64,000 nucleotides of DNA. It comes from a virus. The notes beneath the pieces are model-generated. The model had not been told where the DNA came from. It made no database searches and was given only the letters and a program-made list of their open reading frames with translations. Positions 44,801 through 63,959 of this stretch are shown one piece after another. Position numbers and translations under genes: made by a program. Every line of letters starts with the position of its first letter. Position 1 is the stretch's first letter. The stretch lies in IMG/VR virus record IMGVR_UViG_3300042387_000725, positions 1 to 64,000 of that record; one strand, given 5' to 3'.

Positions 44801-46831
44801 TTAATATAGTTTAATCTCACATGCATCTGTGCTGCAATATGCTTCACCCTGTGCTTCAAGATTTTCAACTCCATCATAAATAGCAGACCAGTCAATCTTA
44901 CCAATTATTCCAACATATGCGTTGTATTCTTCTCTTGTGATTTCAGTATAAGGTTGCTGAGGATATGTTTGATTTCCCATTGGAAGGAATGATACTGCTT
45001 TTAGCTGTCCTTCGTACATATGAAGGGCAGGAGCAATAAACTTGGCCTCAGTTTCTTTATCAAATGAAAGTGTCACAGAAACACCATTATCTGACCAGTA
45101 CTTCTGAGCAGTTGCTGCCAAACCAATTTTCTCAAATAGACTAACATTTTTTTCAGCACGTGGGTGACCAGACGCTACTGGGAAATACACTACTTGAGTA
45201 TTTGCTGATACTAAATCTCTTTCAATTTTATATCCCGCTGCTTTAAACAAATGAAGCATTGGATCTTGGTCTCCAAAACGAATAGCACGAAGATAGAATG
45301 CTCCTCCTGGGCCCCAGTGAACCCCTGGAGTTGCACCAGACAGTAGTGATACAGATCCTGATGGCTTAACGGTTGTCACACGAATTGACTCACGAACACA
45401 TAGCCATTCTGAATATTGCTTGTCATAGCTACGAATCTTTTTGTATCCTTCATCCATCCACTCACGAGTTATTGGCAAACCATTTTTATCAGCAAATGAG
45501 GCAATTCCTGTAAGGGATGTACCAATACGACGATTACGCTGCATAATTCCGTTTGTAGTTGGCCAGTGTGTTGGAAGAAGTGTTACAGTCTTTCCGTAAA
45601 GATATGCAAACTTCAATGTCTTAAGAAAGTCTTCCTTAGAATCATGACGATTTAGGTGAACTTCTACAAGAGTACAAAGTTCGTACGATTCCAATGGCTG
45701 CTCTGCACAAGGATTAAAGCCCATTACACGATAGTCTTTTCCGTCTGCAGGATCAGCAAGGCGACCATAATTACGAGCAACATCAAGCCAAATAAAACCT
45801 GGCTCTCCGTTATCTTTAATAAGGTCTACGTAGTCTTCATACTTTGTTCCGACTGTTGCAGAGATAGAGTTATTACTCATCCATGCCCAACCTGGTTTTT
45901 CTGGATCATATGAGTTACGTTCTGGAAATACTTCTGGATTCTTAAGATTAATAAAGTCTTCATCTTCTGGAGTACCAAGTGCTAGTGTTGCAGAACGACG
46001 AACATTTCCAGAAACAACACATGTTCCAATAAGATTAATGATATCTGTAATTGCACGTGAGTCAAGGTTTTCCCCTGCTCTTCCTCCAATTACTTTATCA
46101 ATTCTATTATGTAAATCAATTAGTGGTTGTGGTCCAGATGCTACTCCGCCAAACCCCTTAATTGGTGCACCTAATGGGCGAATCTCAGAATAATCAAACT
46201 TTTGAATATTTTGATTTTGACGAAGGTATGAGTTTAAAAGCATTTTTACTGACTCTACCCAGCCTTCACGAGTATCAGGAATAACATAGGTATTTACAGG
46301 CTCTGTAGGGCTGTAGATAGGCATTTCTTTATCTTGACCTAATGTATCAAACCCTACTCCAATACCCAGCATAAGGGCATCCATAACCCACGAGAACAGG
46401 GCTCCTGGGTCATTGCGGTCAATATCTCTAGTAGATACCATTGCACAGTTTTGAAGGGCTGCAGAGTTACGCTTCTCCATAGTCATAGGAGTTCCAAATG
46501 TCCACATACCACGACCTGGGGGTGTCCACTTTAATTCAAACATTCTTTGAAAGGCTTCTTGTGCTGACTTCTGTGCCTTATTATCATTCCAAGGCAAACG
46601 ATTCTCTTTGGCATGGTTCTTCTGTACTGAGTACATTCCTTCAATTACACGCTTACAAACCTCATGCCATCTTTCTTTTGTTCCATCTTCCTTCACACGG
46701 GAATATGTACGAATAAACGTAATTTCTCCAAGTGAGTTAGATCCTGCATCTTGATATCCAAACGGAGCTGGAAGTGTTGAATATTTATTTACAAAATCTT
46801 CTGTTAAACGAAAAGAAAATATATCTGACAT
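44801..46831 (-). CDS. nrdJ: Class II (adenosylcobalamin-dependent) ribonucleoside-triphosphate reductase
   Basis: RTYSR, PPGRG, NCA, GNVRRSA, NPCAEQ...CTL, TTVKPSG, C-terminal CSTDAC. Confidence 0.92.
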   Translation of the reverse strand: MSDIFSFRLTEDFVNKYSTLPAPFGYQDAGSNSLGEITFIRTYSRVKEDGTKERWHEVCKRVIEGMYSVQKNHAKENRLPWNDNKAQKSAQEAFQRMFELKWTPPGRGMWTFGTPMTMEKRNSAALQNCAMVSTRDIDRNDPGALFSWVMDALMLGIGVGFDTLGQDKEMPIYSPTEPVNTYVIPDTREGWVESVKMLLNSYLRQNQNIQKFDYSEIRPLGAPIKGFGGVASGPQPLIDLHNRIDKVIGGRAGENLDSRAITDIINLIGTCVVSGNVRRSATLALGTPEDEDFINLKNPEVFPERNSYDPEKPGWAWMSNNSISATVGTKYEDYVDLIKDNGEPGFIWLDVARNYGRLADPADGKDYRVMGFNPCAEQPLESYELCTLVEVHLNRHDSKEDFLKTLKFAYLYGKTVTLLPTHWPTTNGIMQRNRRIGTSLTGIASFADKNGLPITREWMDEGYKKIRSYDKQYSEWLCVRESIRVTTVKPSGSVSLLSGATPGVHWGPGGAFYLRAIRFGDQDPMLHLFKAAGYKIERDLVSANTQVVYFPVASGHPRAEKNVSLFEKIGLAATAQKYWSDNGVSVTLSFDKETEAKFIAPALHMYEGQLKAVSFLPMGNQTYPQQPYTEITREEYNAYVGIIGKIDWSAIYDGVENLEAQGEAYCSTDACEIKLY

Positions 46832-46979: not shown

Positions 46980-47648
46980 TTATCTAAACATTGTATTATT
47001 TATATGGCTAATGTTTATACTATTTACATTAAAATGTTTAGGCAATGATGATACCCACAAAATAGACTGAGCAAGATCATTTGCGGTCAGTGCATCATTT
47101 TTCTTTTCTGCCTGAGTATCAATTGTTCCAGGACATATCTCAGTAATCTTAATGCCATATGCTGGAAACTCTAGTCTCATTGTTTCCAATAATCCAATTT
47201 CTCCCCTTTTAGCATTTGTATAGTTACCGCCACCAGGATAGGGAACGTTTCCACCTATTGATGTTACAAAAATTATTGTTGGAGAATTTGATCTTTGCAT
47301 ACAAGGTACAAATAGCTGAGAAATATACATTGGGCCAGTTACGTTTATGTCATAAGCTCTTCTAAAGTTTTCTGGAGTTTCATTAATAATTTGTGTTGGC
47401 CCAGCTCCTCCACCTGCATTATTTACTAAAAGATCAAGCGTAATGTCTTTGTATTTTTCAAAGAATAACTCTATGGCTTTTGAGTCTGTTATATCTAGTT
47501 GATAAACCTCAACGTTATCAGATACAAGATCAGATACCTTAGATAGGTCTCTTGAAACAGCAATAACCTTGTAACCATTTTCAGATAGTAGTTTTACTGT
47601 TTCTAGTCCAACGCCCTTGCTTGCCCCAGTTACAATTGCTGTTTTCAA
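46980..47648 (-). CDS. Short-chain dehydrogenase/reductase (YdfG-like)
   Basis: TGASKGVG, NNAG, catalytic S and YTNAK, ICPG. Confidence 0.9.
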   Translation of the reverse strand: MKTAIVTGASKGVGLETVKLLSENGYKVIAVSRDLSKVSDLVSDNVEVYQLDITDSKAIELFFEKYKDITLDLLVNNAGGGAGPTQIINETPENFRRAYDINVTGPMYISQLFVPCMQRSNSPTIIFVTSIGGNVPYPGGGNYTNAKRGEIGLLETMRLEFPAYGIKITEICPGTIDTQAEKKNDALTANDLAQSILWVSSLPKHFNVNSINISHINNTMFR

Positions 47649-48383
47649 TTACATACTCTGATTTTTATTAATGTCCATATTGTTATGAATCCAATGGCCA
47701 GGTATCATATACTTAACCCCAGATTTTACAATATGGGCTGTATGAAAATACGGTGGAAATGCTGGAAATATAATAACACTATTTTCTTTTGGCTTTAGCC
47801 CAAAATCAATTGCTTTATTTTCAACAGATATATCATAGTCTAAATCTACAGCTGGTGCTGATCCTTTAGAAAAACCGTCAGCACTAGTCCATCCTCCATC
47901 ATAATCCTTTAACTGGAAAGATATTTCTCCGCCTTCACAGTCATCATTTAGATACATAACTAGAGAGTATCTTAAAGTTTTGTCTCCATCTAGTTGGTCA
48001 AAATGTGCACCCATTCCCATTCCAGTGTTGTATTTCTTTATATTAAAGGTTGGAAAAAGTCTTGGCTCATCAAAATCACCCAATGAAGAAGCATAGTCCT
48101 TACATACATTGTACATTGTAGTCATGATAGCGTCATATATATATTTGCTTTTTTCCGCTACCTCACCAGTAAGGTTATTTATCGCATTGATGTCAAAAGT
48201 TTTTGTCTCTCCATAAATAAAAGTTTTATCGTTAGAAGAAGTCCAGGGATTCCAAACGTTTACCCCTGACTCTGTGTATTGCTCAAGAGTATCTAACTCT
48301 TTCCATACTTTTTTAAAAGTATCAAAGTCTTCAATAGCATCAGTGTAGTAGTATACTTTTGGGTCTAGTTTTTCTTTATTCAT
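47649..48383 (-). CDS. 2OG-Fe(II) oxygenase, prolyl-4-hydroxylase-like
   Basis: HFD...YLNDD.EGGE...H....SGVKY. Confidence 0.88.
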   Translation of the reverse strand: MNKEKLDPKVYYYTDAIEDFDTFKKVWKELDTLEQYTESGVNVWNPWTSSNDKTFIYGETKTFDINAINNLTGEVAEKSKYIYDAIMTTMYNVCKDYASSLGDFDEPRLFPTFNIKKYNTGMGMGAHFDQLDGDKTLRYSLVMYLNDDCEGGEISFQLKDYDGGWTSADGFSKGSAPAVDLDYDISVENKAIDFGLKPKENSVIIFPAFPPYFHTAHIVKSGVKYMIPGHWIHNNMDINKNQSM

Positions 48384-48394
48384 ATTTTTCTCCT

Positions 48395-49054
48395 CTAGTA
48401 CTTGTTATTAACGTAAAAATCTTTTACTTTTATAAAGGCTGTAATGACATGTCTTATTGGACCATCCCCCACATGCTTTACTCCATGCTCATGTTCTGGG
48501 TCACCTGGAAAAACAAGCAATGACCCTGGTTTTGGTCTTAACGTGATGTCAAAATTTTTAAAGAAAAGTTCTCCATCAGAATAATTTTCATTAATATATA
48601 GGATTGCAGCATATCTAATAGATGGGTCTGTGTCTTGATCCACATGAGATTTTAATTCAACACCAGTTTGCATTCTTTGTATAGTTCCCATGCCACCTAC
48701 TATTAAATTTTCATCTGCTCTTTTAACTAAATCTTGTATTCTTTCTTGAAGTACTCTAGCTATATCATATTGCTGAATTTCAAGAATTTTATCATCCCAT
48801 CCTTTAGTAACTTCATATTTGCCTTCATCAACTAGCTTTTGAACATCCGTTGTACCAAATTTTTCTAAACAAAACTCAGCCAAACTTTTCTGATAAGCAA
48901 CGTGCCACTCTGTTTCTTCTGTGGAGTTAATTATGTCTAATACTTGATGCAGTTCTTCTTTAGAGATAAAATCTTCTACTAGCAAAATGCTATCTGAAAT
49001 ATCTACAACGCTATAGTTGTCCTCAATAAGTTCTTTTCTTAAGAAACTACTCAT
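48395..49054 (-). CDS. 2OG-Fe(II) oxygenase, prolyl-4-hydroxylase-like
   Basis: HVD...YINE.Y.DGE.FF...HGV...RH. Confidence 0.88.
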   Translation of the reverse strand: MSSFLRKELIEDNYSVVDISDSILLVEDFISKEELHQVLDIINSTEETEWHVAYQKSLAEFCLEKFGTTDVQKLVDEGKYEVTKGWDDKILEIQQYDIARVLQERIQDLVKRADENLIVGGMGTIQRMQTGVELKSHVDQDTDPSIRYAAILYINENYSDGELFFKNFDITLRPKPGSLLVFPGDPEHEHGVKHVGDGPIRHVITAFIKVKDFYVNNKY

Positions 49055-49805
49055 TGCGATTTAACTCCTCTATCTTATACTTATTACCATCTTTATCTAT
49101 TTTATAGCCCTTTTTAATAAGGTCCTGCCACTCTGCTCTTTCAATCTCTTGCTGTTCTCTTGTTGCTTTCATTTCTGCTGCCCAAGCATCTCTTAGCTCT
49201 TGCGGATAAGCATCTTCTTCTCTGTCATCCCAGAATGAACCTATGGTGTATCTTACTCCGCTTTCAATTAAAGTAACTTCATGCATATTGTTAAAGCCAC
49301 CGTCAAAGACAGCAAGCATTCCAACTTTTGGCTCAATTTCTATTTCTTGTCCTGGGAATCTTAATAGTCCACCTTTAAAATTATCATTTAGATAAAGGAA
49401 CCCAGCATATCTACTTCTTGTAAATGCGCCAGAGTTTCCTTCAGCATCAGTATTGTCTGAGTGTACTCTTGCGTATGCTCCAGGTTCCCATTTTTGTGTG
49501 TGATATCCAATTTTACAAATTGTTTTTGGATCAAGATCGTGAACTGAAGCAATTGCTTCTGGCATTGTTTTTTCAATGTCTGAAAAAATAGTTGGAGATA
49601 ATCCAGCATCAAGTACCTCTTGATCGTTATCTTGTGGAAGAACAGAAGAATATGATTCATAAAATGAAATAGGCATCCATGACAACTTTCCACCTTCTGC
49701 TTGAGCATCAAGTGCCTGAATCATTTTTTTACAATCTTCATCACTAATAAAGTTTTCATAAATAACAATATCTTTTGTGATTCTTTTTTTATTGTTTAGA
49801 TTCAT
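49047..49805 (-). CDS. 2OG-Fe(II) oxygenase, prolyl-4-hydroxylase-like
   Basis: HSD...YLND.F.GG...HEV...GVRY. Confidence 0.88.
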   Translation of the reverse strand: MNLNNKKRITKDIVIYENFISDEDCKKMIQALDAQAEGGKLSWMPISFYESYSSVLPQDNDQEVLDAGLSPTIFSDIEKTMPEAIASVHDLDPKTICKIGYHTQKWEPGAYARVHSDNTDAEGNSGAFTRSRYAGFLYLNDNFKGGLLRFPGQEIEIEPKVGMLAVFDGGFNNMHEVTLIESGVRYTIGSFWDDREEDAYPQELRDAWAAEMKATREQQEIERAEWQDLIKKGYKIDKDGNKYKIEELNRNE

Positions 49806-50668
49806 TTTATCCTTCTTTCTTTGTCAGCGCTAATTTTATTTGGATTATCTAGTCTAAATTCTTCTATAATAGATGGTTGCATTTCTGCCCAAACTTCTTT
49901 ACCAAACTCTTTTTCTTTTTCAAACCACTCAGGACTGCCTACAGAATATTTCATCCAATACATTCTAGAAAGATACTTGTTTGCTCCCGTTGCAGGCATT
50001 ACGCCATGTATGTAAACAGATCCATTTTTTGTTAATACATCTGGGTGACCTGATGGGAAAATCAAAAAATCTCCAGCCTTTGGCTTATACATGTATGCTT
50101 CACCATCAACAATAAAGTCTATCTCTCCACCTTCATAGTCGTCATTAAAATAACAAAGAGCAGTTATTGCAAACTTATACCCTGGACTTGTTATTGGCTC
50201 ACGAATATAATCAGAATGATAGGTCATTGCTAGTGGGTCTTCAATATCTGTTTTATATCTTGCTATAGATGGTCCAGTCATTTGCCATTCTTCCATAAGT
50301 TGACCATTATTTGCTAATACCGTTTTTGTTTTGTCAAGTTCTATACCATTACGTAAAGCATAGTCTTCAGTAGCTAAATAAAAATTTTTAAAAAGTTCAA
50401 GGATTGCAAGCTTTTGAAGTTCTTGTTTTTCTGTTTTTGTTTCTATTTCCTCAATTAAGTCAATTCTTAAATTAGATTGGTAACCCTTAAACATAGGACT
50501 TAAATATTCTCCGAAATGAGCCCATTGAGTCCATGGACTAAAAATACCATCTTCTTCTCCTGTAGAATTTTTTAACAACTCATAGGTTTGTTCTATATTC
50601 TTAAAAAGATTTTTATATACAAATATTTTAGGATATATTTCAATGGCTTCTAAAGTATTTTGACTCAT
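49802..50668 (-). CDS. 2OG-Fe(II) oxygenase, prolyl-4-hydroxylase-like
   Basis: HSD...YFNDDYEGGE...HGV...KY; start moved to MSQNT (ATGA overlap). Confidence 0.88.
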   Translation of the reverse strand: MSQNTLEAIEIYPKIFVYKNLFKNIEQTYELLKNSTGEEDGIFSPWTQWAHFGEYLSPMFKGYQSNLRIDLIEEIETKTEKQELQKLAILELFKNFYLATEDYALRNGIELDKTKTVLANNGQLMEEWQMTGPSIARYKTDIEDPLAMTYHSDYIREPITSPGYKFAITALCYFNDDYEGGEIDFIVDGEAYMYKPKAGDFLIFPSGHPDVLTKNGSVYIHGVMPATGANKYLSRMYWMKYSVGSPEWFEKEKEFGKEVWAEMQPSIIEEFRLDNPNKISADKERRIK

Positions 50669-51345
50669 GGCTTTCTGTCTCCTGTATGTGCCGTAATTTC
50701 CCAAAAAAATGGACATGTAAATCTTAATCCACTTTTTATTTCACTTACTCCATGGATATAGTTTTTATCTCCTGGGAAAAAATAAGCAGCACCTTTCTTA
50801 GGTTTAAATTGCACACCTTGCAGAGGAAAATATAATTCTCCCCCTTCATAATCATCATTTAAATAAAACAAACTTGAAAGATCATAGTTTGGAAAATCAT
50901 TTGGAAGTCCAGCATCTGGTCCTTCATGAAGTTCTTTGTCTGCATGAGGCTTTTGAAATTGCCCTGGAAGCCATTTAACAATTGTAGTTCCAGTTGGTAC
51001 AACTTCTACCTTATAAAAATCTTCAACAATTGGTTTTAGTCTTTGAAATAAACCAGCTATAACTGGGGCAATTCTAGGATCATTTTTGTCAAGACTAGGA
51101 GTTGTTGCTACTCTATCTTTCCAGTAGTCTGAGTCATATACAACAGTGCCGTTTTCATTTACATGGCTTTGTGTTACATCCCAGATAGTTAGAGATTTTG
51201 CTGCTTTTTCTAAAAACTCAATCTCTTCTTCAGTCATGAAGTTTTCTAGCTCTACAATCATGTCTTTGCTGTCTCCAAACCATCCAGATGGGGTTATTGA
51301 CGGAGATCTTTTTACTACTGTATATTCATCTTTGTTTTGTTCCAT
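50665..51345 (-). CDS. 2OG-Fe(II) oxygenase, prolyl-4-hydroxylase-like
   Basis: HAD...YLNDDYEGGE.YF...HGV...GLRF. Confidence 0.88.
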   Translation of the reverse strand: MEQNKDEYTVVKRSPSITPSGWFGDSKDMIVELENFMTEEEIEFLEKAAKSLTIWDVTQSHVNENGTVVYDSDYWKDRVATTPSLDKNDPRIAPVIAGLFQRLKPIVEDFYKVEVVPTGTTIVKWLPGQFQKPHADKELHEGPDAGLPNDFPNYDLSSLFYLNDDYEGGELYFPLQGVQFKPKKGAAYFFPGDKNYIHGVSEIKSGLRFTCPFFWEITAHTGDRKP

Positions 51346-51347
51346 TT

Positions 51348-52070
51348 TTATATTATATCATCCTTCGTATTATCTATTACTCCAAGCTTTATGGTTTTAG
51401 CCTCATGGCTACCCAAAGATTCACCTTTTTCATTTACTGCATTTCTATACCAGTCTGTCCATTTTCCTACCTTGTTAATTTCTTGTGCTGCATCTCCATA
51501 AGATTTATTTGCTGCTTGTTTTTTTCCATCTGGATCCGTGTATTTGTTAATTTGAATAACAGTATTATTTAAGCTTGTTAAAGAGATAGGAATTATTGTT
51601 GCAAGTGGGGTTCCTGCCTTTATTGTTGTAATTTTATTTGCTGCTTTTGCTTTTGCTTTAATTGCTAATGGCAGAGGATTGTCATAAAAAGATGTACTTA
51701 TAACGTTAGACATAGTTTCAAACTCGTCGCTATAATAATTGACTGGATTTATTGTAATAATGCTAAAATTTTCTTCTGTTCTAAAGTATAGACCAGTATC
51801 AAAACTTATTGATGACTGACCTCTTCCAGAATAAGCTCTATCTGGTCCAAAAACTTTTACATTGTCTGGACGCTCACTATTGATCCCATCCCACTCAAAA
51901 CATACATCTTGTTTACAAAAAATACTCCAACCAATTGAATTTGCCTGTGTTACAGGAAAACAATGGTATGCATGTTTTTCTGATGAGACATCCATCCAGT
52001 CTCTCTTAATAGACATAGGAGAAATATCAAATAAAGAGTGTGAGTCTTTTTCAATTATAACATTTATCAT
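51348..52070 (-). CDS. DUF6065-like protein
   Basis: RDWM...HAYHCFPVTQAN..GW...I.AGTPLA.IIP...WYR pattern (family name from recall). Confidence 0.6.
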   Translation of the reverse strand: MINVIIEKDSHSLFDISPMSIKRDWMDVSSEKHAYHCFPVTQANSIGWSIFCKQDVCFEWDGINSERPDNVKVFGPDRAYSGRGQSSISFDTGLYFRTEENFSIITINPVNYYSDEFETMSNVISTSFYDNPLPLAIKAKAKAANKITTIKAGTPLATIIPISLTSLNNTVIQINKYTDPDGKKQAANKSYGDAAQEINKVGKWTDWYRNAVNEKGESLGSHEAKTIKLGVIDNTKDDII

Positions 52071-52726
52071 TAGTCTGCCTCTGCGCTATACATTTCTGGA
52101 GTATGAAACTTTTTACTGTAATCAAGCATTGTAACAATAGAGTACTTGAGTCCAGATGTTACTGGCATTGCCTGATGAGGATACATGTAGTTTGATGGAA
52201 ACACAAAAAGATCTCCTGCTTCTGGCTTAACCTTTAGGTTTTGAAGTCTAAAGAATAACTCTCCACCCTCATAGTCATCATTTGGATATCCTACAAGTGA
52301 TACAGTACAGTTATATGAGAATCCATGATCATGGTGTTCCATAAAGTGCTGTCCTGGACCATACTTAATAAAATTAAATGCTTCCCAATATTTTAGGTTA
52401 TGAATATTGTGCATCTTGCAATAGTCTTCTACTACTGGAGACTTAACATCGTATAGATCTTGCCATAGTGACTGAAGGTTTAAGCTTGTTTCACTTGTAT
52501 CATTTTCAATGTCTGTTTTCTTGAACTTAAAATCATTGCAATCTCTGTAGTCTGGCATTAATTGTTTATATCCAACATAGGCAGGCTGCCAACTGTATCC
52601 AGTCGTATCTCCTACTGGCTTAAGGTTTTCTTCAATTCTTTTAATTACTTCAATTTCTTTTTTAATTACACCTTTGTAACAGAATATTCCATTTCCAAGA
52701 TTTTGTTTTTCTGTCCACGTTTGCAT
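52070..52726 (-). CDS. 2OG-Fe(II) oxygenase, prolyl-4-hydroxylase-like
   Basis: HHD...NDDYEGGE...FPS...H.A.PV.SG.KY. Confidence 0.88.
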   Translation of the reverse strand: MQTWTEKQNLGNGIFCYKGVIKKEIEVIKRIEENLKPVGDTTGYSWQPAYVGYKQLMPDYRDCNDFKFKKTDIENDTSETSLNLQSLWQDLYDVKSPVVEDYCKMHNIHNLKYWEAFNFIKYGPGQHFMEHHDHGFSYNCTVSLVGYPNDDYEGGELFFRLQNLKVKPEAGDLFVFPSNYMYPHQAMPVTSGLKYSIVTMLDYSKKFHTPEMYSAEAD

Positions 52727-52800
52727 TTATTGCTCCCTCTTTATATTTTTAGACTATATTGCTATCTAACAGTTTACCATATTTATAGCAATTATATTTA

Positions 52801-53736
52801 TTATTCCTTCCAAACTGCATGAACACAGCTTGTGCAAAAATTTTCATAAGAATTTTTAATCATATTTTTGCGTTCTTGGCTTTCCCATATTTCCTTTATT
52901 GGCTTTTCATTAATATTAGCAAATATTGTTTCAAACTCATAGTCATTGCAGCATAAGAATACATCTCCATTAGCATTTATATGTATCCAATCTTCAGTCC
53001 TACTTCCCATATTATTGCAGCCAATAACCTTGCCCTTTTTATTTATTTTATTTTTCATTATTTTACGAGTATCTAAATTTCCTGCTCTGTCAACTAAAGA
53101 TATATTTGGAAATATTCTAATTTCTGGGAATGACTCTTTCATTTGCTTAAGAGCAATTGCTGTATCTCCAGTATTATCATCTAAATTTATTTCAGGAGCA
53201 TTTTCCAATAACTCTGTATATCTAAGTGAACTTTGGTTAATTCCATTAACTTGCATTGAAATTTTTTCAACAGGAAAATTATCTATAGCGTATCTAATGT
53301 TGTCCATAACTCTTTGGTGCATTTTTTCAGGTTTACCTGTCATTTTTGACCAGGTAGCAGCATCAGCGGAAGGTGTATTAAAGTGGATTAAATCAACTAC
53401 ATCACTATATTCTTTGATAATGTCCATCTTTTCTTTTGTTAATGGAGAACCATTTGTTAGTACAACTGTTCTAACTCCATGCTCTCTAAACAAATCAAGC
53501 ATTTCTTTAAAATGCTCATAAAGCAAAACTTCGTTATAGTGTGCTGTATAAATAAAAGAAAACTGTGGATCTACAAAATCTCCAATACCAGCCTTTAGCT
53601 GTTCAAGAATAGACCTAATTGTTTCAATAGACATGGTTTTTCTACCAATTGCTGGGTTTCCATCATATGCTACAGGACAAAACCAACAACCAAGATTACA
53701 CAAACCATTAGGATCTAATTGAACTAACTTTATCAC
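52801..53736 (-). CDS. Radical SAM protein with SPASM/Twitch domain
   Basis: CNLGCWFC (CxxxCxxC), TNG, C-terminal C...I..NGDV.LCC.D...C..C. Confidence 0.88.
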   Translation of the reverse strand: MIKLVQLDPNGLCNLGCWFCPVAYDGNPAIGRKTMSIETIRSILEQLKAGIGDFVDPQFSFIYTAHYNEVLLYEHFKEMLDLFREHGVRTVVLTNGSPLTKEKMDIIKEYSDVVDLIHFNTPSADAATWSKMTGKPEKMHQRVMDNIRYAIDNFPVEKISMQVNGINQSSLRYTELLENAPEINLDDNTGDTAIALKQMKESFPEIRIFPNISLVDRAGNLDTRKIMKNKINKKGKVIGCNNMGSRTEDWIHINANGDVFLCCNDYEFETIFANINEKPIKEIWESQERKNMIKNSYENFCTSCVHAVWKE

Positions 53737-53747
53737 ATTGTTACCAT

Positions 53748-54515
53748 CTATCTATATTCTCTTCTTGACCATACTTTATTTTTATATATACCGCCATCTG
53801 GTTGACGATAAAATTTTGAATTATCAACCATATTACCATATATCTCTGATTGATTCAAAATCTCTATATTATGATCCCAGTTTTCTCTTTTAAATGGCAA
53901 AATCTGAAGATACGGAGTTCCTGCTGGAATTGTTCCTTCCCAACCATCTGCAATAAAAAATGGAAAACTTCCAAGAAGATGAACTTTATCTGAATCAACA
54001 ACACCAGTGGTATTTAAAAATGGAAGATCAAATCTATTCATTGGTGTCATGAATAGTGCACTATATCCTTCTGGTAGTTTTAATCCCCAGTCAGCAGACC
54101 ATGCAAAATGATACTTGTAGTATCCATGCGGATGTTCAAACTGTGGCATAGGAGGTCTCTGAGTACAAAAGTCTTGATACTTAGAGTCTTCAATCTTTAC
54201 ATTAATTATACCCTGCGAGTTTTTAAAAAATGTTAAGTCACAAGGGGTTTTAAAAACATATCCAGTTGAAAATGCATCCATGATTGCAGGACATGCTTTC
54301 CATGTTGGAATCTTTCCATAATCATCAGTAGTTCCCTCTTTTGGAAATGGACAAACCTCTTTTGGCGCTTTATAGTATTCCCCATTTGGCATCTTTGCAA
54401 ATCTATCTGCATCTTTGTACCAGTCTGGAATTTCTTTTTGTGTTGGAACAGGAACAGAAATACTTTCTTTATTTAGCCATGGCCTATAAGATTTAAATGT
54501 AGCTATTAGTGACAC
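53748..54515 (-). CDS. DUF6065-like protein
   Basis: P.WYK...TWKACPA..D....GY...PEGYS.LF..P.N...GVVD.D...I.AGTP..QILPFKRE. Confidence 0.6.
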   Translation of the reverse strand: MSLIATFKSYRPWLNKESISVPVPTQKEIPDWYKDADRFAKMPNGEYYKAPKEVCPFPKEGTTDDYGKIPTWKACPAIMDAFSTGYVFKTPCDLTFFKNSQGIINVKIEDSKYQDFCTQRPPMPQFEHPHGYYKYHFAWSADWGLKLPEGYSALFMTPMNRFDLPFLNTTGVVDSDKVHLLGSFPFFIADGWEGTIPAGTPYLQILPFKRENWDHNIEILNQSEIYGNMVDNSKFYRQPDGGIYKNKVWSRREYR

Positions 54516-55243
54516 TACTTATGACCTAGCTCGTTAATATCTGTCATTACCACAACACAGTACTTTGTACCTGACTTCATCGGAAGAGATGCATGCTCAT
54601 AAATATAGTTTGAAGGAAATACTGCTATATCTCCAACTCTTGGTGTATGAACATAGTTGTCTAGTCTTGGGAACTTTATTTCTCCACCTTCGTAATCATC
54701 ATTAATATAGATTACTGCAGATACTGTGCAATTGTAGGCTGGACCATGATCAGCATGAATATTAAAGTGTGTTCCTTCTCCTTCATACTTTACAAAATTA
54801 AATGCTTCATAATAAACAACATTGATTCCCCAGTATGCAGCGTAATCATCAATGCAGTACTTTAATTTTTGATAGATCTCTTCATGAAGATCTAAAAGTT
54901 CTGAGTTTGTTTCATCTCTTGGTCCTAAGTTTTCCTGCTTGTACTTAAAGTCTACACAGTCTCTAGCCTTCTTGATAGGAGTTGTAGAATTAGTTACCTG
55001 AGCTTCTGACCATTTATGTTTTTTGTCACCAGACAGATTTGACTCAAGAATATTTATGTATCTATCAGCATCTGCTTTAGAAAATGTATCATGATATACA
55101 TGCAGGCCTAATCCAAGATTCTCAGCGACAATGCCATCTTTGAGCTGTCGTGGAGGGATTCTGTTTGATGCTGTTTCTGATCTATCTTTAGTAAACCAGT
55201 AGTTTGAGTTTTCATCTTGTACTTGTAAGTTATTATATTCCAT
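54515..55243 (-). CDS. 2OG-Fe(II) oxygenase, prolyl-4-hydroxylase-like
   Basis: HAD...YINDDYEGGE...FPS...H.S.P..SG.KY. Confidence 0.88.
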   Translation of the reverse strand: MEYNNLQVQDENSNYWFTKDRSETASNRIPPRQLKDGIVAENLGLGLHVYHDTFSKADADRYINILESNLSGDKKHKWSEAQVTNSTTPIKKARDCVDFKYKQENLGPRDETNSELLDLHEEIYQKLKYCIDDYAAYWGINVVYYEAFNFVKYEGEGTHFNIHADHGPAYNCTVSAVIYINDDYEGGEIKFPRLDNYVHTPRVGDIAVFPSNYIYEHASLPMKSGTKYCVVVMTDINELGHK

Positions 55244-56042
55244 TTGTTTCTCCCTTTTTTTCTGTTAAATTTAATTGCTTAGCCATATATTTTTTAGTTA
55301 AATACCCAATTAAAGTATTTTCTTGTGGAGTAGAAGACATGCTTGGAATTTCTACCTGATGTCTTTTCCAAGAAGAAGAAAATAAAGATACAGCAACACT
55401 ATTACGTATTAATTTTTTACTATATTCAAAACTTATTGGATCTAAAAAGCTATCTATATGTGAATACCTTATTGGATTAAACACACTCTCTTCTTTGGCA
55501 AAACTTGTTAAATTGTTTTTTTCAATTATTTTTGTAAGTAGCTCTGGACCATTTGCAATTTGATCCTTTTGTGATCCATTTGGTATAAAAACAAAATTAT
55601 CAATTAATTCATTTAAAATCTTTTTATCATTTATATACAAAATACCATTGCCAATTCTTACTGGCTCTTTTGCTGGGTAAGGCTTGTCTATAAGAAATCC
55701 AAAAAGATATGGTTCTGGATCTGGCCACTCATCTTTTAAACAGACGGAATCAGAATCTGTCCAAATAAGATTTGTGTTTTTTAACATATGCAATCTAAAG
55801 AAATCAGCAAACTGTGCATGCCCACCTCCAAAGAGTTCATTATCAAATTTTGTTAGAAATATATCTTTTTCTAATACAATTTCATTGGCATCTTTTTTTA
55901 TGGCACCCTCTGGTACCTCAATAGACATATCATATAAATATATATTTAGTTCATGTCCATGATAAATATATGAATTCCATGAGAGTTGCTGTAACAATGT
56001 TGGTTTATTTCCAAACCACAATGTACCAAACTTTAAACCCAT
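55233..56042 (-). CDS. GT32-like (Gly_transf_sug/OCH1) DxD glycosyltransferase
   Basis: TLWFG...LS..S....GH...LY, DANEI, FADFFR, IWTDSD, GPELLT. Confidence 0.8.
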   Translation of the reverse strand: MGLKFGTLWFGNKPTLLQQLSWNSYIYHGHELNIYLYDMSIEVPEGAIKKDANEIVLEKDIFLTKFDNELFGGGHAQFADFFRLHMLKNTNLIWTDSDSVCLKDEWPDPEPYLFGFLIDKPYPAKEPVRIGNGILYINDKKILNELIDNFVFIPNGSQKDQIANGPELLTKIIEKNNLTSFAKEESVFNPIRYSHIDSFLDPISFEYSKKLIRNSVAVSLFSSSWKRHQVEIPSMSSTPQENTLIGYLTKKYMAKQLNLTEKKGETNGI

Positions 56043-56101
56043 AAGTTTATGCCCCAATCTTATTTAATCAATCATACCATATAGTTGATTTATAAGAATA
56101 A

Positions 56102-56383
56102 TTATTTATTTTTTAATGTATTTAGTTCGTCTTCTAGTTTTTCTATTTTTTGCATTAAGATCTTTAAAACTTCTACTGCATAAACAGAAAGAATGTCATA
56201 CCTAAGAGCCATAGGCTTATCTTCTTTATCTAAGATAACCATATACTTTAAAGAGTCTACCTCATTAACCTCTTCTGCTATATATCCTAGTTGCCTAATA
56301 TTTTTAGGATCATTATTATATATCCAGGTTACTGGGTTTAAAGCTTGTATGGCTTTTTCAAAATCAATTTCAGTTGACCCCAT
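56102..56383 (-). CDS. Stand-alone C-terminal part of a peptidase S74 intramolecular chaperone domain
   Basis: I.ALNPVTW.Y...GYIAEEV...LRY...coiled coil; lacks the S-x-x-R-x-K start; own AAGGGG RBS. Confidence 0.75.
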   Translation of the reverse strand: MGSTEIDFEKAIQALNPVTWIYNNDPKNIRQLGYIAEEVNEVDSLKYMVILDKEDKPMALRYDILSVYAVEVLKILMQKIEKLEDELNTLKNK

Positions 56384-56401
56384 GTTATTTAACTACCCCT
56401 T

Positions 56402-57250
56402 TTATGAATTGATGTTTACAACCCTCATTATACTGTGCTTAAACCTCGCAGATGAGTATCCAAATCTTGGGAAGAACGGGAAGAATGGAGGGAAGAACGG
56501 TGGGAAGAACGGTGGGAAGAACGGTGGGAAGAACGGGAAGAAAGGTGGGAAGAACGGTGGGAAGAACGGGAAGAACGGGAAGAAAGGTGGGAAAAATGGA
56601 GGGAAGAACGGGAAGAATGGTGGGAAAAATGGAGGGAAAAATGGTGGAGTTGTTGTAATAGAACCAGAAGCATCTGAAGTTTCAGAATTTCCATTAGCAT
56701 TTGTTGCATAAACTGTGTATGTCTGAGAAGTGCCACCTTCTTGAGCTACTGCAGCGCTTAGAGTTGATCCTGATACTGTTGCTCCCTTAGAATCAGAAGA
56801 TGCCCAAGTATATCCAGTAATCGCAGAACCACCATTTGCTGGGGCAGACCAAGAAACGTTATCTTGATTAACCTGTGTAGTTACAGTTGGTGCTGAAGGT
56901 TTAGCTGGAACTGTTGTTGCAGTAATTGAAGCAGATTCTGACGAAGCAGTAGATGTTCCTGCAGCATTTGTTGCTGTTACTGTAAATGTATAGGCAGTAT
57001 TAGATTGAAGACCAGTTACAGTGACTGGAGAAGTTGCACCAGTACCTGTAAAACCTCCAGGAGATGAGGTAGCTGTAAAAGATGTGGCTGCAGGAGAAAG
57101 TGCTGGTAGAGAGAAAGAAACAGTTGCTGCACCATTATTAAATGCTCGTGCAGTTCCAACATTTGTTGCTGTAACATCTGTTGGAGCTAATGGTTCTAAG
57201 AAGTCATTTGATGCCTGAGACTTCTTACCCGCTTTTTTCCCTGCTGCCAT
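56402..57250 (-). CDS. FN3-domain protein with a 60-aa (P)PFF tract and an S74-type cleavage motif
   Basis: Two FN3 domains (GLQSNTAYTFTVTATN; W.AP.NGGS.ITGY), P/F-only tract, then RFGY-SSARFKHSI; AGGAG RBS. Confidence 0.85.
   Translation of the reverse strand: MAAGKKAGKKSQASNDFLEPLAPTDVTATNVGTARAFNNGAATVSFSLPALSPAATSFTATSSPGGFTGTGATSPVTVTGLQSNTAYTFTVTATNAAGTSTASSESASITATTVPAKPSAPTVTTQVNQDNVSWSAPANGGSAITGYTWASSDSKGATVSGSTLSAAVAQEGGTSQTYTVYATNANGNSETSDASGSITTTPPFFPPFFPPFFPFFPPFFPPFFPFFPFFPPFFPPFFPFFPPFFPPFFPPFFPPFFPFFPRFGYSSARFKHSIMRVVNINS
56468..56647 (-). repeat. Coding PPFF/PFF tandem repeat (11 PPFF + 5 PFF)
   Basis: 12- and 9-nt units with synonymous variation. Confidence 0.95.
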
Positions 57251-62256: not shown

Positions 62257-62280
62257 TTGTTCTCTAGGAGGTATTTTACA

Positions 62281-62829
62281 ATGAGAGAAGCAAATGTTTG
62301 GTTAGGGGTTTTATTGTTGGTCATTAGTAGTGCCATTTTTTCTGGTAATGCTAGTGCAACTAATGAAAACAACCTTTTGACTAAGAAATCTATGGAAACC
62401 TCTGCCACCCAAAAGGTGGCTTTTTTGGTTTCTAAAGAGCAAAAACTTGAAAAGTACGAAAATGCTCACGCTTTGACTGATGAGCAACTAGTTGAAATGT
62501 TATCGGCTGTAGGCTTTACTGGAAAATCTTTAAGGACTGCTTGTGCAATTGCTAAAGCAGAATCTAATGGTCGTCCACTAGCCTTCAATGGTAATACTAA
62601 AACTGGCGATAGCTCCTATGGCGTATTTCAAATAAATATGCTTGGGAAACTTGGATCAGATCGTAGGGAGAAATTTGAGCTAGATGCAAATGCTGATTTA
62701 CTAAATCCAGTAACTAATGCACAGATTGCCCTACATATGACTAAGGGTGGAGAAGACTGGTCATCATGGAGTTCCTTAAATGGAAAGCGGTACCTAGAGT
62801 GGTACAACAAATATCCATGTAAAAAATAA
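62281..62829 (+). CDS. Secreted lytic transglycosylase (lysozyme-like)
   Basis: Signal peptide (ASA site); AIAKAES catalytic Glu, SYGVFQIN, L.NP..N, W..W; AGGAGG before the ATG at 62281. Confidence 0.85.
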   Translation: MREANVWLGVLLLVISSAIFSGNASATNENNLLTKKSMETSATQKVAFLVSKEQKLEKYENAHALTDEQLVEMLSAVGFTGKSLRTACAIAKAESNGRPLAFNGNTKTGDSSYGVFQINMLGKLGSDRREKFELDANADLLNPVTNAQIALHMTKGGEDWSSWSSLNGKRYLEWYNKYPCKK

Positions 62830-62900: not shown

Positions 62901-63959
62901 TTAGTATCCTCCATATGAGAATCTTGGGAAGAATGGGAAGAACGGCGGAAAGAATGGAGGGAAGAATGGAGGGAAGAACGGCGGAAAGAATGGAGGGAAG
63001 AACGGTGGGAAAAATGGTGGGAAGAATGGAAAGAACGGAAAGAATGGTGGGAAAAATGGTGAGGTAACCACGAGATTAGATGGATCTGAAGTTGGAGAAT
63101 TTCCAATTGCATTTGTAGCATAAACGGTATATGTTTGTGAAGTATTAACTTCTTGATCAACTTCAACTGATAGCGTTGTTCCAGAAACTGTACCAGTCTT
63201 ACCGTCAGAAGATGCCCAGGTGTAACCAGTAATTGTAGATCCACCGTTTGCTGGAGCAATCCAAGAAACGATATCTTTAGATGATCCTGTTGTTACTGTT
63301 GGTGCTGCTGGTTTAGCTGGAACGGATGTGTCTGTAACATAAGGTTCGCTTGCAGAACTAAACAATCCAGATCCATTGGCATTATTTGCACAAATAGTAA
63401 AAGTATAAGATGTTCCTCCATTAAATGCACCAGTGGCAGTTAATGGACTATTTATTCCTGCCTGAGTTGTTATTGATACAGAAGGAGATGAAGCAATGGT
63501 ATAACCTGTTATTTCGCTTCCTCCAGATTCTGGGGGAGTAAATGTTAAGCTTACTACTGTATTGCTAACTTTAGTTGGTACACCAATGGTTGGAGTTCCT
63601 GGAACAGTAGTTGCTAGAATTGAATTAGAACTTATACTTGGTAGATAAGAACTTCCAAGTGAGCTATTTCCTTTTGATGTAAAAGTATATGAAGTATTAG
63701 ACTGTAATCCTGTAATTGTTAATGGTGAAGAACCTGTTGCTGTAAATGATCCTGGATCTGATGTTACCGTATAGCTTGTAGCTGGACCACCTGTTCCTGG
63801 AGCAGCTAAAGAAATAGTAGCAGATCCATCATTAAATGGACGATTTGTACCAACATTTGTTGCAGTTGGAACTGCTCCGTCTGGAAGATCATTTATTGGG
63901 GTAGTGTACTGTATCTTTCTTAATAATAAGCTTAGTAAAGATACTTTTGAAATTGTCAT
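62901..63959 (-). CDS. FN3-domain protein with a 45-aa (P)PFF tract
   Basis: Three FN3 domains, the first and last clearly paralogous to those of 56402-57250; ends PFFPRFSYGGY. Confidence 0.85.
   Translation of the reverse strand: MTISKVSLLSLLLRKIQYTTPINDLPDGAVPTATNVGTNRPFNDGSATISLAAPGTGGPATSYTVTSDPGSFTATGSSPLTITGLQSNTSYTFTSKGNSSLGSSYLPSISSNSILATTVPGTPTIGVPTKVSNTVVSLTFTPPESGGSEITGYTIASSPSVSITTQAGINSPLTATGAFNGGTSYTFTICANNANGSGLFSSASEPYVTDTSVPAKPAAPTVTTGSSKDIVSWIAPANGGSTITGYTWASSDGKTGTVSGTTLSVEVDQEVNTSQTYTVYATNAIGNSPTSDPSNLVVTSPFFPPFFPFFPFFPPFFPPFFPPFFPPFFPPFFPPFFPPFFPFFPRFSYGGY
62925..63059 (-). repeat. Coding PPFF/PFF tandem repeat (8 PPFF + 4 PFF)
   Basis: 12- and 9-nt units with synonymous variation. 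Confidence 0.95.

Follow-up and report, generated by a model that had tools for sequence, protein, structure and literature searches.

A proline/phenylalanine tract that co-varies with an array of prolyl 4-hydroxylase-like oxygenases: a candidate substrate-plus-tailoring module in an uncultured lake phage family

Introduction

Chlorovirus PBCV-1 reportedly encodes a prolyl 4-hydroxylase (P4H), A085R, that has the virus's own Pro-rich repeat proteins as substrates; the work, attributed to Eriksson et al. (1999), is the closest experimental precedent for the locus described here. This locus lies on the minus strand at positions 46980 to 57250 of the first 64 kb of the 89,155-bp IMG/VR virus record IMGVR_UViG_3300042387_000725 (record completeness, 82%); that 64,000-nucleotide stretch is hereafter called the window. 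A gene for an FN3 protein with a tract composed only of proline and phenylalanine (the P/F or (P)PFF tract) is followed there by seven genes encoding P4H-like 2-oxoglutarate (2OG)-Fe(II) oxygenases and by genes for a glycosyltransferase, DUF6065-like proteins, a radical SAM enzyme, and a short-chain dehydrogenase/reductase (SDR). PBCV-1 and this phage share a virus-encoded P4H-type enzyme together with viral Pro-rich repeats, and a profile of the seven paralogs matches the solved structure 5c5t, listed as "Prolyl 4-hydroxylase," with E 2.3e-8. PBCV-1, however, has one enzyme and PAPK-type repeats, whereas here seven to ten tandem paralogs and DUF6065 accompany a repeat of Pro and Phe alone in a bacteriophage, and the enzymatic activity is predicted.

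Few aquatic-phage genes of unknown role are as common as tandem 2OG/Fe(II) oxygenase genes, and we know of no substrate for such tandem oxygenases in phages. Sullivan et al. (2010) found that 14 of 16 cyanomyoviruses carry more than one 2OG-Fe(II) oxygenase, and the roles discussed for these are speculative (PMC3037559). Iyer, Abhiman, de Souza, and Aravind (2010) describe ten tandem dioxygenases in Synechococcus phage Syn9, for which secondary-metabolite synthesis was proposed, as well as bacterial dioxygenase/sulfotransferase operons in which tail-collar or collagen-like proteins are substrates predicted in silico (PMC2938197). The locus studied here resembles those systems in being a phage tandem 2OG dioxygenase array and in having co-encoded fibre-like proteins that are predicted to be hydroxylated and then further modified. 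The Syn9 array comprises at least five families plus halogenases, whereas here the array is of a single family, PF13640, is preceded by a fibre-region gene, and co-varies with a candidate substrate motif. In the Skp1 pathway of Dictyostelium and Toxoplasma, the cytoplasmic prolyl 4-hydroxylase PhyA is followed by the GlcNAc-transferase Gnt1, which acts on hydroxylated Skp1 (PMC3515798). Relatives of the window phage show a comparable pairing of a P4H-like gene with a neighbouring PF11397 GlcNAc-transferase gene. The Skp1 target is, however, one proline of a globular protein and not a polymer, and the window record, 82% complete, carries a GT32-like glycosyltransferase and no PF11397 homolog that we could find.

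What is new here is a specific Pro/Phe polymer on fibre-region proteins that co-varies with a one-family P4H-like array; a literature search found no published account of PPFF tracts in bacteriophages. The system is a recurrent module in an abundant, uncultured lake phage family with genomes of ~110 kb, and the window holds one member.

Results

The genes that a first-pass annotation had named in this stretch were all found there, on the minus strand, closely packed and supported by Pfam. The two tract proteins of the window and the seven oxygenases are listed below.

56402..57250, minus strand: FN3 protein with P/F tract, 282 aa (Pfam fn3, E 2.8e-9)
62901..63959, minus strand: second FN3 protein with tract, 352 aa (pattern search and open reading frame [ORF]; Pfam fn3, E 7.1e-16, three stretches)
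54515..55243, minus strand: P4H-like oxygenase 1, 242 aa (PF13640, E 1.5e-10)
52070..52726, minus strand: P4H-like oxygenase 2, 218 aa (PF13640, E 8e-13; PDB match to B. anthracis P4H, E 7.1e-5)
50665..51345, minus strand: P4H-like oxygenase 3, 226 aa (PF13640, E 1.3e-8)
49802..50716, minus strand: P4H-like oxygenase 4, 304 aa (PF13640, E 8.8e-8)
49047..49805, minus strand: P4H-like oxygenase 5, 252 aa (PF13640, E 1.6e-8)
48395..49054, minus strand: P4H-like oxygenase 6, 219 aa (PF13640, E 1.5e-10)
47649..48383, minus strand: P4H-like oxygenase 7, 244 aa (PF13640, E 2.5e-8; ~30-aa insert between the HxD strand and the distal-His strand)

The first tract spans residues 202-260 and is 59 aa of pure P/F, made of 11 PPFF and 5 PFF units, with 22 further residues up to the C-terminus of the 282-aa protein. 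The gene had been described as ending in 60 P/F residues; the purity of the tract stands, and its length and terminal position have to be corrected. In the second protein, a 44-aa (P)PFF tract occupies residues 301-344 and the C-terminus reads PRFSYGGY. Neither protein has a Cys-rich tail. Phenylalanine is encoded by TTC 29 times versus TTT 3 times in the first tract (56468-56650) and by TTC 18 times versus TTT 6 times in the second (62925-63059), against a background of 893 TTT versus 191 TTC in the rest of the genome. CCG likewise accounts for 9 of the 27 Pro codons of the first tract and 6 of the 20 of the second, against 25 of 1022 elsewhere. Pro codons also differ from unit to unit inside a tract. 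Together, the codon bias and this variation would be consistent with selection at the protein level and against homopolymer runs, and not with a freshly expanded DNA repeat; judged from the sequence, the reversed codon usage may reflect avoidance of T- and C-runs.

All seven oxygenases exceed the PF13640 cut-off (33.4-49.6 bits vs. 27). In the alignment of the paralogs, H131, D133, and H184 (numbered as in oxygenase 2) do not vary, and a K or R follows the distal His in all seven; the seven intact HxD...H triads read earlier from the translations were thus borne out. Compared with solved structures, the paralog profile matched B. anthracis P4H (7.5e-13), prolyl 3-hydroxylase 1 (8.5e-10), and the P4H 5c5t mentioned above, followed by the PKHD-type hydroxylase 3dkq (1.9e-6) and then EGLN1, P4H-TM, and LH3. 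The top five rows of the structure table represent three distinct proteins, all named prolyl 4- or 3-hydroxylases, three of the rows being one Bacillus P4H. These matches support a predicted peptidyl-prolyl hydroxylase-like activity for the seven paralogs but do not single out one subfamily, since PKHD-type hydroxylases match as well. Three further P4H-like genes lie in the genome beyond the window, at 69049-69852, 85085-85828, and 86180-86854; the first has a C-x-C...C-D-x-x-H motif in its N-terminal part, which we take to be of the CDGSH iron-sulfur type.

Distribution of tract and array was analyzed among IMG/VR relatives of two FN3 queries, which numbered 324 and 299; the best 80 were used for each. 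Members of this FN3 family consist of FN3 domains, an aromatic/proline repeat, and a variable C-terminal module. The repeats fall into two classes with none intermediate: class A (PPFF, PFF, PPYF, PPGFFA) has a Pro fraction of at least 0.36, and class B (single-Pro aromatic repeats such as FSFxPFGxFG, FSPFGVFG, TPYAF, and similar) a Pro fraction of at most 0.21. ORFs between the FN3 gene and the class II ribonucleotide reductase (RNR) gene, or the end of the locus, were scored with a hidden Markov model of the window's seven paralogs. After exclusion of rows duplicated in both N-terminal region and repeat, and of rows in which the repeat was preceded by <150 aa, the set comprised 77 class A and 30 class B rows, 107 in all. 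Of these, 90 were informative, in that the sequence either extended to the RNR gene or offered no less than 4 kb downstream; the other 17 were too short (16 class A and 1 class B).

At least three P4H-like ORFs were found downstream in 61/61 informative class A rows, and zero to two in 29/29 informative class B rows. The 33 complete class A slots contain 6 (6 rows), 7 (22 rows), 8 (3 rows), or 9 (2 rows) P4H-like ORFs in 6.7-9.6 kb, and the 21 complete class B slots contain none in 0.8-5.0 kb. Sampling in the reverse direction, by oxygenase 3, yielded 72 new loci. A same-strand P/F tract lies upstream in all 26 of those with at least 7 kb of upstream sequence and in 15 of the 17 with 4-7 kb; the two tractless loci reach only 4.0-4.3 kb, and elsewhere the tract is 3.4-6.6 kb away. 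The co-occurrence and adjacency of (P)PFF genes with enzyme clusters, proposed in the first-pass annotation as a check on its idea, were therefore observed in related phages, all 90 informative rows being consistent with them, as they might also be after one linked evolutionary event.

The family has several kinds of C-terminal module: some proteins have none, and others end in a Cys-rich knot, a long domain (~160-230 aa), or a Peptidase_S74 (intramolecular chaperone) stub. Class A proteins carry 29 Cys-rich, 14 long, 3 S74-stub, and 26 short or absent modules, and class B proteins 22 long, 1 Cys-rich, and 4 short or absent ones. From these sequences, the distribution suggests that C-terminal modules have been exchanged between tract and array; the tract/array pairing stays unbroken despite the frequent exchange, in both classes, of what lies between. 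The long domain was considered as a "Hint" domain on the basis of motifs only (N-terminal Cys and C-terminal HN), and was not confirmed as such by Pfam or solved structures.

Some P/F tracts are remote from the array and form tails or internal linkers in fibre-like proteins of 326 aa to 1566 aa. Three records that are at least 52% complete (L198, L200, and L213) hold 6, 6, and 13 PF13640 genes, with the array ~30 kb from the tract protein in L198 and L200; no PF13640 gene was found in two short tract-bearing fragments that are 26% and 8% complete. One of the distant-tract records belongs to a more distant lineage, with 40% major capsid protein identity vs. 75-76% in close relatives. Positions 6605-10300 of L198 encode a 1232-aa protein of a more distant lineage, in which C..WS.WS.C repeats, presumably thrombospondin type 1-like, precede a P/F tail. 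Internal-linker tracts lie between folded domains at L214 5085-6062, L200 7673-10552, and L213 5801-10498; the L214 protein additionally carries an Ig-like He_PIG domain (Pfam).

The reading that we favour is hydroxylation of the (P)PFF tracts by the P4H-like array, perhaps with glycosylation. We advance it tentatively and stop just short of calling it probable, since a single linked event may underlie the comparative evidence. A quick tree of the FN3 proteins required six changes of repeat class, just one of which is forced by well-supported branches. In an approximately unbiased (AU) test, class B as a single clade was not rejected (p-AU 0.588), and the free quick tree scored 9.15 log-likelihood units below the constrained one. 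The perfect two-by-two table could consequently reflect a single event, and since the tract adjoins the enzyme slot, one recombination could move both. A claim of several independent co-transitions of repeat class and array was dropped in view of the AU test and the one forced change. Other observations weigh in the same direction, against hydroxylation of the tract: six class B rows keep one or two P4H-like genes nearby; seven to ten distinct hydroxylases for a two-letter polymer are hard to explain; neither a PF11397 nor an epimerase homolog was found in the 89-kb record, which is 82% complete (tblastn for PF11397); and (P)PFF is not, to our knowledge, a recognition motif of any known P4H.

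The wider distribution of the oxygenases bears on the same question. Homologs of oxygenase 2 were found in 309 phage records, mostly of cyanomyoviruses and in multiple copies, with 29-37% identity among the 40 matches listed. The homolog in ACG-2014f is part of a region of auxiliary genes close to nrdA/B; no FFPPFF-coding tract was found in this genome, the sole cyanomyovirus tested. Elsewhere, then, the oxygenase family has other substrates or differently sequenced ones. The main rival reading, which we regard as somewhat unlikely, is that the array is a lineage-specific auxiliary-gene island that by chance occupies the variable slot separating the fibre module from the RNR gene, and that its enzymes target host proteins (such as translation factors or ribosomal proteins) or metabolites and not the tract. 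Such an island would be in keeping with the proposals made for cyanophage oxygenases, namely DNA repair or 2OG control (PMC3037559) and secondary-metabolite synthesis (PMC2938197), no substrate being named there. The unrelated cassettes in class B slots, the unrejected single origin of the class split, and the three extra P4H-like genes elsewhere in the genome (~69.1, 85.3, and 86.7 kb) fit it as well. Against it stand the zero exceptions among informative rows, the concordant reverse sampling, and a tract/array pairing that survives frequent exchange of the module between its two parts. The array also runs in the same orientation as the late structural genes and is tightly packed behind them, and in relatives P4H-like and PF11397 genes are adjacent within the fibre module.

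Class B slots were inspected for what they hold in place of the array. A His-rich family of ~215 aa, in tandem runs of one to four copies, occurs in 23/30 class B rows, 2/77 class A rows, and 0/126 ORFs of this genome; its invariant residues are H131, D132, H133, H142, and H181. Members include those at L055 11331-12616, L031 7374-9280, and L088 13546-16302, among others. None of 20 members matched Pfam, no solved structure was matched, and an hhalign comparison with the P4H-like profile showed no relationship (probability ~1%); the only lead is a language-model pointer to PF13759. Sulfotransfer_2 and Asp_Arg_Hydrox (AspH-like) genes occupy some class B slots, and at L064 10997-12504, L114 11280-12513, and L111 2916-4125 they immediately follow genes for FN3 proteins whose aromatic repeats contain Tyr, Asn, or Ser. 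This arrangement is reminiscent of the operons for hydroxylation followed by sulfation that Iyer et al. (2010) predicted (PMC2938197). A DUF6065-like gene is present in 9/21 complete class B slots.

Two repeat chemistries, each with its own cassette, fit a substrate-plus-tailoring system and two alternative islands equally well. A broader view, which we find somewhat unlikely, is that repeat-matched cassettes build a new kind of post-translational polymer on fibres: P4H arrays, DUF6065, glycosyltransferase, and radical SAM enzymes for (P)PFF, and His-rich putative oxygenases, AspH-like proteins, and sulfotransferases for FxFxPFG-type repeats, with repeat and cassette being swapped together as a host-range or adhesion module.

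The enzymes might also modify other virion proteins, such as a collagen-like fibre protein, with the P/F tract left unmodified as a hydrophobic stalk or linker. The classical substrates of P4H are repeats of the collagen type. A collagen-like protein with ~13 G-X-Y triplets is encoded at genome positions 66165-66881, outside the window and 9 kb upstream, and shares 44% identity with a Pfam Collagen protein from the relative L016. The occurrence of P/F tracts as internal linkers in several large fibre-like proteins would suit such a stalk, and collagen-like and tail-collar proteins are substrates that Iyer et al. predicted for co-encoded bacterial dioxygenases (PMC2938197). We nevertheless consider this target improbable. 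Homologs of the collagen-like protein are found with class A and class B repeats alike (class B in L064 and L110), so that they do not explain a class-specific array, and the protein in this genome has only about two X-Pro-Gly sites and a gene that is not adjacent to the array.

The remaining genes of the locus and its downstream neighbour are as follows.

56102..56383, minus strand: Peptidase_S74 piece, 93-aa ORF (Pfam E 7.1e-6, 26.7 bits vs. cut-off 22; profile positions 18-52 only)
55233..56057, minus strand: GT-A type glycosyltransferase, GT32-like (Gb3_synth PF04572, E 4.1e-5, 24.2 bits vs. 22.3; TDSDS motif)
53748..54515, minus strand: DUF6065-like protein, 255 aa (no Pfam match; BLASTP to the 51348-52070 product, E 2e-4)
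52801..53736, minus strand: radical SAM/SPASM enzyme, 311 aa (PF04055, E 7.2e-14; PF13186 SPASM, E 1.6e-11; CNLGCWFC)
51348..52070, minus strand: DUF6065 protein, 240 aa (PF19541, E 7.1e-25, 88.3 bits vs. 26.6)
46980..47648, minus strand: SDR, 222 aa, last gene of the array (adh_short, E 1.7e-41)
44801..46831, minus strand: class II (B12-type) RNR (Pfam, synteny), the conserved downstream border of the variable slot, outside the system

The glycosyltransferase had been identified from the letters as a DxD, GT32-like enzyme, and both the PF04572 score above the cut-off and the TDSDS motif agree with this; it has a weak PDB match to Legionella SetA (E 0.006). It is present in just 3 of the 172 sources scanned, namely the window and the relatives L052 and L081, and the S74 piece is confined to the same three. 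The assignments of the radical SAM/SPASM enzyme, with its CxxxCxxC motif and Radical_SAM and SPASM domains, and of the SDR likewise held in Pfam. Of the two genes that had been called DUF6065-like, the one at 51348-52070 is so at the Pfam level, and the one at 53748-54515 is linked to the family by the BLASTP match and by language-model features (0.97 to DUF6065-bearing viral clusters). An alignment profile of DUF6065 matched no solved structure, and the idea that DUF6065 is an additional oxygenase was rejected, as its alignment has no His triad. A further candidate, the "ferrochelatase" described beside phage oxygenases (PMC9599517 and PMC3037559), was rejected as a DUF6065 counterpart: phage records of oxygenase 2 homologs bear names such as "2OG-Fe(II) oxygenase," "PiuC," and "ferrochelatase," and the gene called "ferrochelatase" in cyanophage records matches oxygenase 2 itself. 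Five phage-like contigs with a DUF6065 gene (L297-L301) occur in lake metagenome-assembled genomes of Flavobacteriales, Luteolibacter, Acidimicrobiaceae, and Beijerinckiaceae; their spread across four taxa is apparent mis-binning, so the bins inform neither on the host nor on a bacterial context.

In the window, the radical SAM gene sits inside the oxygenase array, and in relatives it is placed in a separate operon. A P4H-like gene lies at most ~1.3 kb upstream of it in 20/21 radical SAM loci of relatives. Where examined, the operon consists of a P4H-like gene (PF13640, E 4e-20), the radical SAM gene, a PF11397 GlcNAc-transferase gene (E 3.2e-35), and an NAD-dependent epimerase gene, and is located 7-9 kb upstream of the tract gene within the fibre module, as in L016 9333-11847. 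In L153, a P4H-like and a PF11397 gene are present and the radical SAM gene is absent. A PF11397-like gene, which we take to be of the Gnt1 family (GT60), was found in 24 loci of relatives. Counted per FN3-gene row with at least 9 kb upstream and with duplicates kept, it is present in 8/42 class A vs. 0/29 class B rows. The SDR gene, counted per FN3-gene row with duplicates kept, is present in 32/47 class A rows with a complete slot vs. 0/35 class B rows. By analogy with known pathways, the adjacency of P4H-like and PF11397 genes in relatives is the best independent hint that phage P4H-like enzymes make hydroxyproline on a protein that is later glycosylated. We place the radical SAM enzyme with this hydroxylase/glycosylation module; it may act on a sugar, and peptide cross-linking is less likely.

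The glycosyltransferase, the radical SAM enzyme, and the SDR could in principle belong, with part of the oxygenases, to a sugar or small-molecule pathway that makes an unusual virion or host-surface glycan independently of tract hydroxylation. The sole solved-structure match of the radical SAM enzyme below E 0.01 is BtrN (E 1.7e-7), presumably a sugar/aminocyclitol dehydrogenase. The glycosyltransferase and epimerase beside the relatives' radical SAM gene, and the many sugar or ketoacyl reductase models matched by the SDR, lean the same way. The BtrN match is, however, limited to the radical SAM core (residues 3-110), the enzyme has a full SPASM domain, prolyl-hydroxylase-type enzymes dominate the array, and a P4H-like gene accompanies nearly every radical SAM locus, as counted above. 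We judge an independent pathway of this kind quite unlikely.

The first-pass annotation had gone further and compared the locus to a ribosomally synthesized and post-translationally modified peptide (RiPP) cluster in which the radical SAM/SPASM enzyme might cross-link the tract to give an extensin-like polymer. Peptide modification is common among SPASM enzymes, and a Cys-rich knot ends the tract protein in many relatives; NCBIfam gave no equivalog at its cut-off for the radical SAM enzyme, with weak DynA, CbpB, and AmcB matches far below. Set against this, the candidate substrates are FN3 structural proteins of 282 and 352 aa with no leader or core peptide, and 46980-57250 contains no RiPP recognition element (RRE) or PqqD-type domain, protease, or exporter, the radical SAM enzyme itself showing no Pfam domain beyond Radical_SAM and SPASM. 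Cross-linking is further disfavoured by the placement of the radical SAM gene between a P4H-like gene and glycosyltransferase and epimerase genes in relatives, with BtrN as the only structure match below E 0.01, and by its absence from 28/35 class A rows with at least 9 kb upstream, including 14/20 with Cys-rich tails; both tract proteins of the window lack such a tail. As for the extensin analogy, the tract contains only PPFF and PFF units and has neither Ser-Pro(n) (Ser-Pro(3-5)) glycomodules nor Tyr cross-link motifs. None of these three parts of that proposal found support, and we regard the RiPP-like cluster as highly improbable.

The S74 piece, noticed earlier as a chaperone fragment and now supported by Pfam, is in a separate ORF that shares the frame of the FN3 gene, with two in-frame stops, TAA and TAG, between them. 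The identical split is found in L052 and L081, with an own start codon in each. The 22-aa tail of the 282-aa protein presumably resembles the first strand of an S74 domain, its Ser...Arg-x-Lys stub being, we assume, typical of the start of the domain; when the stops were read through as X, the Pfam S74 match did not reach this tail. The 93-aa ORF resembles the C-terminal chaperone of endosialidases and tail fibres in scoring above the Pfam cut-off. In those proteins S74 is a contiguous C-terminal domain that starts with a cleavage-site Ser, whereas here it is divided into two ORFs separated by stops, and self-cleavage is only putative.

Terminase, DnaB, UvsX, capsid protein, protease, and portal were identified in the genome (PHROGs). 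Minus-strand fibre-like genes, one with an Mtd_N domain (Pfam), run from 64.7 to 57.3 kb, followed by the genes studied here and then by the class II RNR gene, 148 nt beyond the SDR gene. From the FN3 gene to the SDR gene, spacing ranges from a 52-nt overlap to a 74-nt gap, with all genes on the minus strand. Sigma-70-type promoter-like sites (65 vs. 66.8 expected) and terminator-like sites (9 vs. 11.0 expected) are at chance level. Contigs from three other lake-metagenome studies span the radical SAM/DUF6065-like, oxygenase 2/radical SAM, and oxygenase 1-glycosyltransferase-S74 junctions with zero differing letters; all of them end within the P/F tract, the length of which is known from this record alone. 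No RNA run containing the stretch was found. Among isolated phages, megablast found no near relatives of the 10.3-kb stretch, and tblastn gave no match for the radical SAM enzyme or DUF6065; the FN3 protein had one weak match. The sole plus-strand gene of the fibre block, 62257-62829, encodes a 190-aa protein with a hydrophobic N-terminus and, by eye, a lysozyme/transglycosylase-like look; terminator-like hairpins lie at its start and within it.

Discussion

The genes of this locus, their order, the catalytic residues of the seven oxygenases, and the co-variation of the array with repeat class are features of the sequences themselves. Of the substrate-plus-tailoring cluster put forward in the first-pass annotation, the core survives as a candidate: a P/F tract that would be the substrate of P4H-like enzymes, with possible glycosylation, as argued by the co-variation over 90 rows, the structure matches, and the adjacency of P4H-like and PF11397 genes.

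For the substrate, the chemistry, and the timing, we infer the following course. Late in infection, the oxygenases would hydroxylate the highly hydrophobic (P)PFF tracts at prolines and perhaps elsewhere. The array would act on both tract proteins (56402-57250 and 62901-63959), possibly in trans. The hydroxyls would render the tract soluble and stiff and would offer attachment points for sugars added by the glycosyltransferase. For the SDR and the radical SAM enzyme, tailoring of the sugar would be more likely than cross-linking of the peptide. Through the split S74 domain, the first tract protein would be trimerised and trimmed at its C-terminus.

Were hydroxylation of the tract to prove false, the arrays in this abundant lake phage family would be host-directed auxiliary genes. 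If it is true, bacteriophages modify their own fibre proteins by hydroxylation and perhaps by glycosylation. The (P)PFF tract would then be a new Pro/Phe structural polymer and the first substrate for the large 2OG-oxygenase arrays of phages, and the paralogs would amount to a collection of prolyl hydroxylases that may differ in regio-specificity, of potential use in peptide and collagen engineering.

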